Shown: in pieces, positions 40,275 through 43,929 of the stretch
Position numbering within the stretch: position 1 is the first letter of the stretch
How the letters are laid out: every line of letters starts with the position of its first letter
Origin: Candidatus Entotheonellaceae bacterium
GTDB lineage: Bacteria > Tectomicrobia > Entotheonellia > Entotheonellales > Entotheonellaceae
Assembly (NCBI GenBank): GCA_965238075.1
Contig: OZ250173.1
Location: forward strand, 1,952,001-2,016,000
Direction: 5' to 3'
DNA length: 64,000 nt
The notes under the pieces: model-generated
Told to the model about the DNA's origin: nothing
The model's database searches: none
Seen by the model: the letters and a program-made list of their open reading frames with translations, nothing else
Translations under genes and position numbers: made by a program

Positions 40275-40544
40275 CTAATGCTTGTCCAGTTCCAGCTCGT
40301 AGAGCTTCTGATACATCACGTCCCATTCCCGGCTGCCTTCCATGATCCTGCGCGTATAGGATGCCAGAGTCTGCCGGACGGCGAAGTCGACTTCCTCTTC
40401 GAGCCGGAGCGCTTCCTGTATGGCACCCACGATCTGCAGCCGCACGGTGTTGGAGGGCATGCGGAGCGTCACCTCCGGCATTTCCTCCAACCTCCGCACG
40501 ACAAGCTGCGAAAGATGATTGACTTTTTCCCTTGAGAGGCTCAT
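40275..40544 (-). CDS. DUF507 family protein
   Basis: MSLSREKVNHLS...EGSREWDVMYQKLYE; second gene of a tandem pair. Confidence 0.8.
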   Translation of the reverse strand: MSLSREKVNHLSQLVVRRLEEMPEVTLRMPSNTVRLQIVGAIQEALRLEEEVDFAVRQTLASYTRRIMEGSREWDVMYQKLYELELDKH

Positions 40545-40575: not shown

Positions 40576-40857
40576 CTACAAAATCAGCCCGCGGTCCCGC
40601 ACAAGTTGGCGTTTGACCATGGAAAACATGCGCGAGTAGTCGATGTTGCCGCGGTCCATCTCGTTGATGTGGTCCTCCAGGATGTCTCTTACCTCGTCGT
40701 TGAGGCGATCCTCAACCATAAGGTCGTTGACAATCAGCCGGCTCACTGCCTCGGTTACGGCACGCGGGTCCACCTCGAGCTCCAGCATGTCTTTCCGGGT
40801 CAACACGTCCGTGATGATCTTGGCGACGTGGTCGATCATTTTCCTGCCCAGTCGCAT
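40576..40857 (-). CDS. DUF507 family protein
   Basis: MRLGRKMIDHVA...EDRLNDEVRDIL...MFSMVKRQL; AGGAGG RBS. Confidence 0.8.
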   Translation of the reverse strand: MRLGRKMIDHVAKIITDVLTRKDMLELEVDPRAVTEAVSRLIVNDLMVEDRLNDEVRDILEDHINEMDRGNIDYSRMFSMVKRQLVRDRGLIL

Positions 40858-41079
40858 ACCCGGCCTCCTTCGCATATCCAGCAGATTCCAGGGAATGATA
40901 TGTTGCGGACAACGCAAGTTCAAGCGCGCACGCGGCGCCCCGCGGCTGCTTGCAAACCCTTTATGGATTGCCTACTATGCGGCCCAGTTCCGATTGGCGG
41001 CGTTTACGACGGGAGAGCACATGCTGGAGGTAAGCGATAAATCCGCCCTGAGACCACGGGCCCTGCCGCGGCGAGGTCA

Positions 41080-41427: not shown

Positions 41428-41540
41428 GTTCCGTCGCCGGCTGGCGTCCTGACAATGCCGGGGCGGTGTGCTACCATCGGCGCCTCTCATTCACACCATG
41501 CAAGGGCCGCACGGCCCGCAACGCAGCAAGGAGAACCTTC

Positions 41541-42206
41541 ATGAGCCAAGGCTACCACTTCACCATCTGGAGTTGTTACGTTTGACCATACGCCTGGCGA
41601 GCCGCGGAGTGGCTCGATCGCGTGAAAGACAAATTGGGCGAAAACCTGAAAATTACCTGGAAGTCGTTTCTGCTCGAGCAAGTCAACAGTCGCCGCGGAA
41701 TGGAATGGAAAGCCTGGGACGACCCCCGTTTCACCAGCCGCGACATCCCGCCGCATGAGGCCGTCAAGAGCATCCTGGCCGAGCAGGGCGAGGACGCTTT
41801 CAACCGTTTCCATATCGCCGTGTTCCGTGCGCACCACCAGCAGAAGCGGGACATTGCCAATCCCCTCGAACTGATGCAGTTGGCCCGCGAGGTCGATGTC
41901 GACCCCACCGTGTTGGCCGAGGACCTGCGCACCCGCAAGTACCGTGCTGCCGTCGGCGCCGACCATCAGGAATCGGACGAGCACGACATTTTCGGCGTGC
42001 CGACTATCCTCTTCGACGGTCACCAGCCCACCTTCATCAAACTCGATTCCGGGGCTTGGGAAGGACCGGACGACGTGGAGCTCTTCCACGCGCTGTACAA
42101 CATCGCCGCCCCGCGTCCGTACGTCATGGAAATCAAGAAACCCGCCTCGGCGACGGTCGCTGCCGCTTCGGAGGCGCGCCGCCGCGAGGACATGGGACGC
42201 GGCTAG
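41541..42206 (+). CDS. DsbA/FrnE-like thioredoxin-fold protein, putative selenoprotein (UGA15 = Sec)
   Basis: AAGGAG RBS, ATG 41541: MSQGYHFTIWSCYV-TGA-PYAWRAAEWL, in frame with track ORF 41622; cis-Pro loop IFGVPTILF. Confidence 0.8.
41598..41616 (+). promoter_or_regulatory. Putative bacterial SECIS hairpin
   Basis: CGAGCCGC-GGA-GTGGCTCG 8-bp stem with G-containing apical loop, starting 13 nt after the in-frame TGA (41583-41585). Confidence 0.6.
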
Positions 42207-42625
42207 AGCCGGGTTAACACTGTCGGACTGTATCGTGTTCCAGTCCCGGGATGGAAATCGCCGACTCTCAGTACCAACGCATAGCGCCCTGTTTGCTGGT
42301 GCAACGTGGCAACGTCAACCTGTCGAATCTGCCAAGTGCTCGGCGCCAGCCTGTACGTCGTCGAGCATGGCTGCATGTGGCGGGGGTTGCCGGAGTGATC
42401 TGGCAATTGGCATGCCCATTTACACCTAGATGAGCCGCTGGTCGAAGAACGGGGCGCTGGATCGGGTCTTCGAGCACCTCCCAGCGAGAGAGAATCGCGC
42501 GCATCAAATTCGAGGCGGTTTCGATGGACAGCACCATCGTCAAGGTCCGTCCCGATAATACGGGCGCGCTAAAAAGCCCGCAGCCCATCGGAAAATCCCG
42601 GGGCGGTTGGACCACTAGAGTGAAT
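42204..42625 (+). mobile_element. Degenerate IS5-family (IS427-group-like) transposase pseudogene
   Basis: Multi-frame translation MEIADSQYQRIAPCL..QRGNV..LYVVEHGCMWRGLP*..GNWH..MSRWSKNG.LDRVF..SMDSTIVKV..GALK..IGKSRGGWTT; contains stops and frameshifts and is 3'-truncated. Confidence 0.85.
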
Positions 42626-42724
42626 TCACTTTGATACCAAGAGCCTTGGCAGAAGCGGTCATGGCAAAATGCCCTCGCAGGAACTCCAACTCCGAAAAAC
42701 TCGTTATCTCAAACGGGACGCACA

Positions 42725-42828
42725 TTAGAACAGTTCAAGATTGCGCAGCGGCATACCCAGAAGTCCTGAAAAGCGAGTGCATTTGTCTGGTTTGAATCGA
42801 GATTCCTTTCAATCTTGAACTGCTCTAA
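42725..42828. mobile_element. MITE-like element with 19-bp terminal inverted repeats
   Basis: TTAGAACAGTTCAAGATTG ... CAATCTTGAACTGCTCTAA (1 mismatch) around a 66-bp non-coding core. Confidence 0.65.
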
Positions 42829-42848
42829 GTTCAGAGGTAAGGACCCTC

Positions 42849-43439
42849 ATGTCGCACGATTTGCGCATTAAAAATAGAACTGTAGTCAATGGGGGGGATG
42901 AGCGCGATCAGACCGACGAGTTGGTCCGCAAGCTCTGGAGCCGCCTGTCGATGGAGGCGCCGGCGATCCATGTCGCATCCCCTGAGCAAGTTCCCGGCAC
43001 TTACCACAAGCTCCTGGTCCACGACACTGGTATGACGGCCACTCTCGAGGCCCACTGGAGCGAACCGCTGGCTGTAGACCTGGTGGCGGATGACCTGATT
43101 GTCGAAGATCGCTCGCTCTACCGCTTCATCGCGCTGTACACCAAAGGCACCCGCCAAGTGGTGGAACTGGCCACCATCCGTATCGTGCTGGATGTTTTCC
43201 CGGCGCCGTTACGTCCGGAGTTTATCGAGGGCGTTCGCCCCTTCGGCGGCATCCTGACTGGCGCGGGCATCACTTTCCGCGCTAGGCCATCAGGTTTCTT
43301 CTGGATCAAAGCCGACGAATTCATCGCCCGGAAAGCCGGTATAGACGTCGGCATAACGCTCTACGGTCGGATGAACGAACTGCACGGCGAAGACGATGTC
43401 CTGCTGTGCGAGACCGTCGAGATGCTGCCGCGCGTCTGA
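42849..43439 (+). CDS. Chorismate lyase (UbiC/DUF98)-like hypothetical protein
   Basis: LLVHDTGMTATLE, RPFGGIL, LYGR and ETVEMLP pattern. Confidence 0.55.
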   Translation: MSHDLRIKNRTVVNGGDERDQTDELVRKLWSRLSMEAPAIHVASPEQVPGTYHKLLVHDTGMTATLEAHWSEPLAVDLVADDLIVEDRSLYRFIALYTKGTRQVVELATIRIVLDVFPAPLRPEFIEGVRPFGGILTGAGITFRARPSGFFWIKADEFIARKAGIDVGITLYGRMNELHGEDDVLLCETVEMLPRV

Positions 43440-43590
43440 ACGCCCGCGAAAGTGCCCGTCAGCGCATCTCGAATGCTTATTCCGCTTTACGACTGCGGCG
43501 GTCAACCAGGGTGGTCTGGCCGAGGCGACGGCACCGTTCACTTCTAACCAGTGAGTGATACCGAGAGCAAGACGAGCAGAAAGGTCGATT

Positions 43591-43929
43591 GTGGCCGAAT
43601 CGCTGGAATCGTATTACCCCGTGGAAATTCAGCGCAACGACGGCGGCGCCCTGCGCATCCTGTGGAACGACGGGCGCGTCTGCTTCTATGGATACAGCAA
43701 TCTGCGCAAGGTCTGCCCCTGCGCCACCTGCGGCGAACTGCGCACCCAACAGCAGGAAGCCGCCAAAAACCCCTTCCAGACCGTGACCACCGTCACCACC
43801 CGCGACGTGCAGCCGGTGCACCTGAACACCGTGGGCCATTACGCCCTCGGCATCGAATGGGACGACGGCCACCGCACCGGCATCTACCCCTGGGCCATGC
43901 TGCGGGCACTCTGCGAGGACGACGATTAA
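43591..43929 (+). CDS. DUF971 (GBBH-like N-terminal) Zn-binding protein
   Basis: LRKVCPCATC, VGHYALGIEWDDGH and GIYPW motifs. Confidence 0.9.
   Translation: MAESLESYYPVEIQRNDGGALRILWNDGRVCFYGYSNLRKVCPCATCGELRTQQQEAAKNPFQTVTTVTTRDVQPVHLNTVGHYALGIEWDDGHRTGIYPWAMLRALCEDDD

Follow-up and report, generated by a model that had tools for sequence, protein, structure and literature searches.

Does the TGA at positions 41583-41585 of the window end a short reading frame, or is it decoded as selenocysteine (Sec) in the active site of a DsbA-like enzyme? The window, i.e., the whole 64,000-nucleotide stretch analyzed here, comes from a Candidatus Entotheonellaceae bacterium. A preliminary description of it had read an AAGGAG ribosome-binding site, an ATG at 41541, the TGA, and then PYAWRAAEWL in frame with an open reading frame (ORF) that starts at 41622, and all of these elements hold. 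When the TGA is read through, a single 221-codon gene followed by a TAG stop spans 41541-42206 of the forward strand, and PYAWRAAEWL lies in the same frame as the GTG-initiated ORF at 41622-42206 (Table 1). The best explanation, and one that we regard as very probable, is that this interval makes up a single gene, whose product is a cytoplasmic selenoprotein of the DsbA fold with Sec15 inserted at the UGA. On the comparative evidence set out below, we consider the gene to be real but mis-annotated, its apparent stop codon being read as Sec at the active site.

Table 1. Coordinates of the features of the putative selenoprotein gene and its surroundings in the window.
Feature	Position	Strand	Remarks
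Shine-Dalgarno sequence AAGGAG	41528..41533	+	7 nt before the true ATG (41541)
Full putative selenoprotein CDS, DsbA-like fold (PF01323)	41541..42206	+	DSBA 56.9 bits; AF2 mean pLDDT 94
14-codon leader omitted by gene callers	41541..41582	+	codes for strand beta1 and Cys12
Cys12 codon TGT, -3 from Sec, proposed resolving residue	41574..41576	+	invariant in the clade
Proposed Sec codon TGA, residue 15	41583..41585	+	conserved TGA; aligns with Cys in homologues
Possible lower stem	41589-41593 with 41620-41624	+	in the MFE fold; weakly supported
Putative bSECIS upper stem-loop	41598..41616	+	5' arm CGAGCCGC (41598-41605), loop GGA (41606-41608), 3' arm GTGGCTCG (41609-41616)
GTG taken as a false start by gene callers	41622..41624	+	in the middle of helix alpha1 (helix 16-35, AF2)
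G-V-P-T loop, residues 152-155, thioredoxin-fold loop facing the active site	41994..42005	+	
GBBH-like_N/DUF971 gene, conserved downstream neighbour	43555..43929	+	PF06155 81.3 bits

The 194-amino-acid ORF that begins at the GTG, described earlier as lacking any redox motif, contains no Cys, and in the read-through protein Cys12 and position 15 are the sole Cys/Sec sites. Database proteins (P0002 and others) start at the GTG corresponding to 41622 and omit the leader (MSQGYHFTIWSCYV). The prediction that gene callers would shorten this protein was likewise confirmed: a collection of 5.8 billion proteins yielded 127 matching proteins, and most of the 120 matches listed start after the TGA. Only six of those 120 extend over 97% of the query, each with the sequence WSCYVCPYAWR. 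In each of the 14 loci listed, a GGAG-type site precedes the ATG at the equivalent position.

The read-through protein matches the Pfam family DSBA (PF01323; cut-off 25.6 bits) across residues 9-185 and, at 28.0 bits against a cut-off of 27, the Rv2466c-like family (PF22234), with the CPWC motif absent. A search of the read-through protein against NCBIfam returned only VdcD (E 0.075), which was taken as a chance match. In the AF2 model, which was built from a 48-sequence alignment, strand beta1 occupies residues 5-11, the loop at residues 12-15 consists of C-Y-V-U, and Pro16 opens helix alpha1, which ends at residue 35. Foldseek matched this model to DR2335, Rv2466c, FrnE, kappa-class GST, DsbM, and classical DsbAs; the model and the Foldseek matches together display a thioredoxin fold with an inserted helical domain. 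Residues G152, P154, and T155 of the G-V-P-T loop, which we take to be the cis-Pro loop, are nearly invariant in the 48-sequence alignment. Since the protein begins directly with beta1, it has no signal peptide. It is a cytoplasmic DsbA-fold enzyme.

The site itself was surveyed in 57 representatives, taken at the 50% identity level, that cover it. Position 0 is Cys in all 57 and position +1 is Pro in 54. The preliminary description had proposed that the TGA is decoded as Sec at the nucleophilic Cys position, and the alignment bears this out: Sec15, the N-cap residue of helix alpha1, falls in the column of the first Cys of CPxC and of Cys24 of DR2335. Cys or TGA was indeed found in the codon 15 column, with TGA at 49 loci and TGT/TGC at 10. 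The Cys noted three residues upstream, in place of the usual Asp, is also a rarity in this survey (Asp in 52 of the 57 representatives, Cys in 3). The canonical C-P-x-C dithiol is absent from the window protein, in which +3 is Ala18; 13 of the 57 representatives carry a Cys there.

A genome search covering 61 genomes, the window's own included, and two further scans revealed 56 orthologous loci that retain both the in-frame TGA and the 14-codon leader, in records of Tectimicrobiota/Entotheonella, Planctomycetia, and Thermodesulfobacteriota. A complete ortholog with one in-frame TGA is present in 12 of the 14 genomes of the family, i.e., all 6 of the genus and 6 more of the family, and the match starts at residue 1-4. 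The other two family genomes hold fragments at contig edges, one of which includes the TGA. The titles of the records from close relatives read Candidatus Entotheonella and Tectimicrobiota. Further away, the distant genome G022 encodes two paralogs with D(Y/F)L-TGA-PFVYR, and its relative G061 encodes one more; these DxxUP loci (L034, L038, and L128) share 30-33% identity with the window protein.

The scan of metagenomes uncovered 52 loci, 47 of which include the site, with TGA in 37 and TGT/TGC in 10, a Sec/Cys ratio (37:10) that is biased since one of the search patterns was Cys-specific. The 10 Cys-form loci read WSCYVCPYAWR at the site. In addition, a scan of species-representative genomes, queried with an 11-sequence alignment, gave 20 loci; the site is covered in 19 of them, and every one has TGA there. 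Eleven of these loci are records already found in the 61-genome search, and by title the 8 new ones belong to Planctomycetia (4), Thermodesulfobacteriota/Deltaproteobacteria (2), Acidobacteriota (1), and an unclassified bacterium (1).

In a rival reading, the TGA is a true stop, the product is the 194-amino-acid protein from GTG 41622, and the codons upstream are a separate small ORF or an untranslated leader, unless the locus is a pseudogene. Public gene calls (P0002, P0042, P0064, and others) treat the locus in this way, and TGA is also the commonest stop codon of this genome. The translations speak otherwise, in that conservation extends over the leader but not beyond the ATG into the upstream sequence. 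For a quantitative comparison, 53 distinct 138-nt segments from the 56 Sec loci were used to compute the mean minor-allele fraction per codon position. Upstream of the ATG, it was 0.34, 0.32, and 0.33 at positions 1, 2, and 3, respectively, whereas the leader gave 0.14, 0.10, and 0.26, and the ten codons after the stem 0.11, 0.14, and 0.40. Every one of the 53 Sec segments has Cys at -3, encoded by TGC in 39 and by TGT in 14, and all 10 Cys-form loci have it as well; the Tyr at -2 alternates between TAC (31) and TAT (22) in the Sec segments. This third-position bias and these synonymous codon swaps point to purifying selection on a peptide that is read in frame across the TGA, and we regard the leader as coding on the strength of this pattern. 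Without the first 27 residues, the product would have no beta1, no active site, only half of helix alpha1, and no Cys at all, and in the Cys-form homologues the frame is contiguous. Nor would a pseudogene retain one nonsense codon, together with a covarying hairpin, across three phylum labels. With the TGA kept at 56 loci besides, termination at this codon appears extremely improbable.

A sequencing or assembly error, with TGC or TGT as the true codon, is a chance so small that we set it aside. The TGA occurs in independent assemblies, and both it and the hairpin are unchanged in contigs from four sequencing runs in four studies. Those contigs differ from the window elsewhere, e.g., by a synonymous C>T at 41594. 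Two of the four are RNA libraries, whose contigs are assembled and show presence rather than transcription, as DNA can occur in such libraries.

An 8-bp hairpin with a GGA loop, said in the preliminary description to begin 13 nt after the TGA, was found at that spot. Its stem includes one G-U pair (RNAfold), and its first base is the 13th nucleotide after the TGA, with 12 unpaired bases between. The bacterial SECIS (bSECIS) model, as given in section 5 and the Fig. 2 legend of a 2026 review (PMC13188914), allows a loop of 3-9 nt, a stem of 4-16 bp, and a UGA-to-loop distance of 16-37 nt, with a G in the first two loop positions and a minimum free energy of -7.5 kcal/mol or lower. The hairpin at the window locus has a 3-nt loop (GGA) with G at loop positions 1 and 2, an 8-bp stem, a UGA-to-loop spacing of 20 nt, and an energy of -12.1 kcal/mol, all of which lie within these bounds.

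Compared with shuffled sequences, the 68-nt segment is not significantly stable (z = -1.39; 20 of 200 shuffles were as stable), and the stability of the hairpin by itself is ordinary for such G+C-rich sequence. An Rfam scan of 41450-41750, at E values up to 10, returned only weak and irrelevant matches (malK-III and H19_2), an outcome that carries no weight for or against a SECIS.

The comparative evidence for the hairpin, however, is strong. The covariation alignment holds 17 distinct sequences, namely the window and 16 of the 19 genome loci; it omits three near-identical genome loci and all metagenome loci. All 136 stem cells (136/136) pair in this alignment, vs 29-40% when the partner is slid, and the covariation score was reached by none of 500 shuffles. 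Five of the eight stem pairs vary, and one of them changes on both sides, from C-G to A-U, in 3 sequences of one lineage, probably as a single event. The residues encoded by the stem differ by lineage (R-A-A-E, R-V-T-L, or R-A-M-E; overall, A/V, A/T/M, and E/L/S at the varying positions) while pairing is kept, which indicates that the constraint acts on the RNA. In addition, third-position variation falls to 0.03 in the six stem-loop codons, vs 0.16 just before and 0.40 just after them, and the codon of Leu+10 is CTC in all 53 distinct segments. As for the possible lower stem, 85.9% of its cells pair, and none of its pairs is changed on both sides.

The Sec and Cys forms differ sharply in this hairpin. 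One and the same hairpin sequence occurs in 48 of 49 Sec loci, and the remaining locus carries two pair-preserving changes, so that all are 8/8 paired. In the 10 Cys loci, the hairpin is broken in every case, with 7 different sequences, 6-7 of the 8 pairs left, and energies of -2.3 to -8.4 kcal/mol. Collectively, the comparative evidence shows that this element is a bSECIS-type hairpin predicted to direct Sec insertion.

Sec decoding also depends on the machinery of the host, and the recommended search for selA, selB, selC, and selD was positive throughout. The tRNA-Sec scored 73.9 bits (cut-off 47) and was called by ARAGORN as tRNA-SeC with anticodon TCA, and selA (606.7 bits), which adjoins selB (357.7 bits), as well as selD (318.8 bits) all exceed their curated cut-offs. 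The alpha subunit of formate dehydrogenase has no in-frame stop in this genome and so could not serve as a Sec control. The genome does encode a second Sec-DsbA (L093), i.e., a membrane-anchored member of the DSBA family with an in-frame TGA in SDYT-U-PHC. Its hairpin has the same geometry as that of the window gene: nucleotides 16-23 form one side of an 8-bp stem, and the loop opens with GGA at nucleotide 24.

Comparative data alone cannot name the inserted residue, and in principle the TGA could be read through as Trp, Cys, or Gly, via near-cognate suppression or a reassigned code. We hold this to be very improbable. TGA is not globally reassigned in this genome, where it is the commonest terminator and ends 1294 of the 2719 stop-to-stop ORFs of at least 300 codons. 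The genome encodes the complete Sec machinery, and the site falls in the catalytic Cys column, where all 57 representatives have Cys. Furthermore, the bSECIS-type hairpin is lost exactly where the codon is TGT or TGC, and a like hairpin geometry accompanies the second active-site TGA of the genome. Insertion of Sec is the reading that we retain.

We inferred a maximum-likelihood tree from 53 distinct rows, 47 of them Sec and 6 Cys. These rows were drawn from the 57 loci in which at least 170 codons follow the site; the Sec/Cys column was masked, and loci below this length, exact duplicates, and the contig-truncated L034 and L038 were omitted. In this tree, which was made by a quick method and rooted at the midpoint with no outgroup, the Cys forms make up two clades nested among the Sec forms (SH-aLRT 98 and 85/99), and the fewest changes required are 2. 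The deepest branches are Sec forms of Thermodesulfobacteriota and Planctomycetia. On this midpoint-rooted tree, the clade likely started from Sec and turned to Cys on at least two occasions, with decay of the hairpin afterwards. This proposal, short of proof, agrees with the Cys forms having hairpins that are partly preserved.

How, then, might the enzyme work? The comparative evidence indicates that, once the ribosome reaches the UGA, SelB carrying Sec-tRNA(Sec) binds the hairpin and Sec is inserted as residue 15. In the chemistry that we propose, Sec15 might then attack a disulfide or another oxidised or electrophilic substrate, Cys12 would resolve the intermediate to give a Cys12-Sec15 selenylsulfide, and the latter could be re-reduced by thioredoxin or a low-molecular-weight thiol. 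We infer the role of Cys12 as the likely resolving residue from its conservation and from its being the sole other Cys of the protein.

If Sec decoding is accepted, Sec15 might also act alone, as a mono-selenol enzyme with a low-molecular-weight thiol cofactor, leaving Cys12 a structural or regulatory part and forming no selenylsulfide. Single-Cys DsbA-like proteins, kappa-class GST, and HCCA isomerase are named as precedents, and the fold neighbours include the glutathione- or mycothiol-dependent Rv2466c, kappa GST, and DsbM. In the subfamily, a second Cys near the site is mostly missing, in that 44 of the 57 representatives lack a Cys at +3 and 52 have Asp at -3, and the DxxUP relatives in G022 and G061 do without a Cys at -3. 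For the closest structure, DR2335, which is DsbA-like and has one conserved Cys, the available text of PMC8945050 gives no experimental function, which makes a mono-selenol mechanism equally conceivable. Set against this, Cys12 is invariant in the 53 Sec segments and the 10 Cys-form loci, across three phylum labels and despite synonymous codon changes, it stands where Asp is otherwise near-universal, and the protein has no other Cys. Catalysis by Sec15 alone is a serious contender that we nevertheless place below even chances, and a role for Cys12 in resolving the Sec15 intermediate is the likelier reading.

DsbA-like selenoproteins as such are not new. In the available text of the original report, the first of them came from the Sargasso Sea in 2005, with 9 sequences of the UxxC type (PMC1088965), and Table 3 of a 2016 survey counts them in 41 organisms (PMC5029168, as far as its accessible portion goes). 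The 2026 review distinguishes, in the sections available, form 1 (UxxC) from form 2 (DxxUP), crediting the latter to Peng et al. 2016 (PMC13188914). By that description, form 2 resembles the window protein in belonging to PF01323, in having Sec followed by Pro at the nucleophile position, and in lacking the +3 Cys (PMC13188914). When the two are compared by form 2's description in the same text, they differ at -3, where the window clade has Cys (CxxUP) and form 2 has Asp. The relatives in G022 and G061 carry exactly D-x-x-U-P. Form 1 likewise shares the DsbA family and Sec at the first CPxC position, and the genome's own copy, L093, shares the SECIS geometry as well; however, form 1 keeps the resolving Cys at +3 and L093 is membrane-anchored, whereas the window protein reads U-P-Y-A, with Ala at +3, and has no signal or anchor.

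The closest structural relative is DR2335 (PDB 7dk9; C24S mutant, 7dka), which was the top sequence match (E 2.6e-7) and the top fold match (TM 0.75). Its DFLCPYAWR stands in register with CYVUPYAWR of the window protein, and it is cytoplasmic and without a +3 Cys, but it has Cys for Sec and Asp for the Cys at -3, and identity is only about 22%. A literature search on 7DK9 found only a modelling benchmark. Rv2466c (a mycothiol-dependent reductase), FrnE, and DsbM share the fold (Foldseek E about 1e-8 to 1e-6) and a cytoplasmic reductive role, but they use CPxC, which the window protein lacks. FrnE members have CP(W/F)C, and many of them also a C-terminal CxxxxC, according to the available text of PMC8945050, and the window protein has neither.

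A Cys-x-x-Sec motif between beta1 and alpha1 is also found in thioredoxin-fold selenoproteins of the SelW-like, AhpD-like, and other types (PMC1088965, in its available text). These are unrelated families, and the CxxU of the window protein is shifted by three residues relative to the CPxC of its own family, so that Sec occupies the position of the first Cys rather than of the second, a register that presumably sets it apart from SelW. A literature search for 'CxxUP' returned nothing relevant, although supplementary tables, e.g., those of Peng et al. 2016, may include such sequences as DsbA-like. In one paper dealing with both Entotheonella and selenocysteine, the sole mention is of SelA/SelB homologues in a RiPP cluster. 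Judged from the sequences compared here, CxxUP appears to be a previously undescribed motif variant of the known DsbA-like selenoprotein family and not a new kind of selenoprotein.

With respect to genomic context, a gene of the GBBH-like_N/DUF971 family lies downstream of the DsbA-like gene in all 13 Tectimicrobiota-type loci (L108-L120). The gap between the two genes is about 60-230 nt in 12 of the 13 loci; in L110 and in the window, about 1.35 kb separates the genes. Within 1.5 kb on either side of the Planctomycetia and Thermodesulfobacteriota loci, no DUF971 gene was seen. Among the neighbours, this gene alone is conserved beyond the genus. The neighbouring upstream 115-amino-acid ORF and the 196-amino-acid ORF matched no Pfam or NCBIfam family. 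A functional link between the DsbA-like gene and the DUF971 gene is speculation on our part. Taken to its furthest extent, our proposal would be that a new redox centre arose in the DsbA fold, i.e., a selenylsulfide couple of Cys(-3) and Sec(0), placed in the loop between beta1 and alpha1 one helical turn off the CPxC position, by a change of the near-universal Asp at -3 to Cys in a mono-selenol ancestor, and that in Tectimicrobiota it cooperates with the downstream DUF971 (GBBH-like_N) protein in an undescribed thiol, metal, or Fe-S pathway. We put this forward tentatively and consider it rather unlikely as a whole.

The shortened public gene calls mean that the active site is cut off in records of Entotheonella and related bacteria, and that the selenoproteomes of these symbionts are under-counted. 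Since 55 of 150 distant representatives start just after the site, our data suggest that many more Sec forms are hidden in the same way. The clade offers a natural experiment, with matched Sec and Cys orthologs in which the SECIS is frozen in the Sec forms and decaying in the Cys forms, and with an active site whose resolving residue would have moved from +3 to -3. More broadly, DR2335-type proteins are a subfamily without known function, and a Sec-containing member marks the catalytic residue of that subfamily unambiguously.

The genome from which the window comes holds, outside the window, a second selenoprotein candidate of the DSBA family (locus L093). This putative protein carries the motif SDYT-U-PHC, i.e., the UxxC form, is membrane-anchored, and comprises 235 codons as far as the following TGA. 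In their spacing from the UGA, the SECIS-like stem and the GGA-starting loop of L093 match the corresponding elements of the DsbA-like selenoprotein gene in the window. The same genome also encodes selA adjoining selB, and a 2025 paper on Entotheonella (PMC12858407) refers to SelA/SelB homologues as part of a RiPP gene cluster.

Features in the window and elsewhere in its genome
Feature	Location	Strand	Remark
Small gene	window 40275-40544	-	Pfam DUF507 match, profile positions 95-179
Small neighbouring gene	window 40576-40923	-	Pfam DUF507 match, profile positions 1-93
Segment separating the DsbA-like gene from the DUF971 gene that usually follows it	window 42207-43554		~1.35 kb
ORF inside this segment	window 42849-43439		196 aa
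GBBH-like_N/DUF971 gene	window 43555-43929		lies downstream of the selenoprotein gene, a conserved arrangement
Second DSBA-family selenoprotein candidate	L093:1273-1980		outside the window; TGA at L093 1522-1524
selA adjoining selB	C1 (same genome):1025501-1028793	-	

Downstream of the selenoprotein gene, the GBBH-like_N/DUF971 gene recurs across the Tectimicrobiota-type relatives (loci L108-L120); the flanks of the Planctomycetia and Thermodesulfobacteriota loci showed no copy of it. Among the loci compared, only the window and L110 have the segment of about 1.35 kb that separates the two genes; it may be an insertion, and the ORF inside it is without a Pfam or NCBIfam family. Elsewhere in the window, the DUF507 profile (182 positions) is split over two genes, an arrangement kept in the close relatives L108-L112.

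In-frame TGA codons also occur in DxxUP-type DsbA-like genes of two genomes (G022 and G061) whose family is unrelated to that of the window. G022 has two such copies (L034 and L038, 90% identical) and G061 has one (L128). The predicted loop, GGUCUG, likewise starts 20 nt past the UGA. On two soil metagenome contigs (L064 and L065), the ortholog with Cys at the Sec codon is adjoined by a second DsbA-like gene, a single-Cys paralog with DFYFDVSCPWAWR.

Among the protein representatives at the 50% identity level, 55 of 150 start at query residues 16-40, often exactly past the U-P-x-x position (e.g., MWLDRV... and MYNAAVWL...). Such starts would be expected if these were truncated calls of additional Sec forms from distant lineages.
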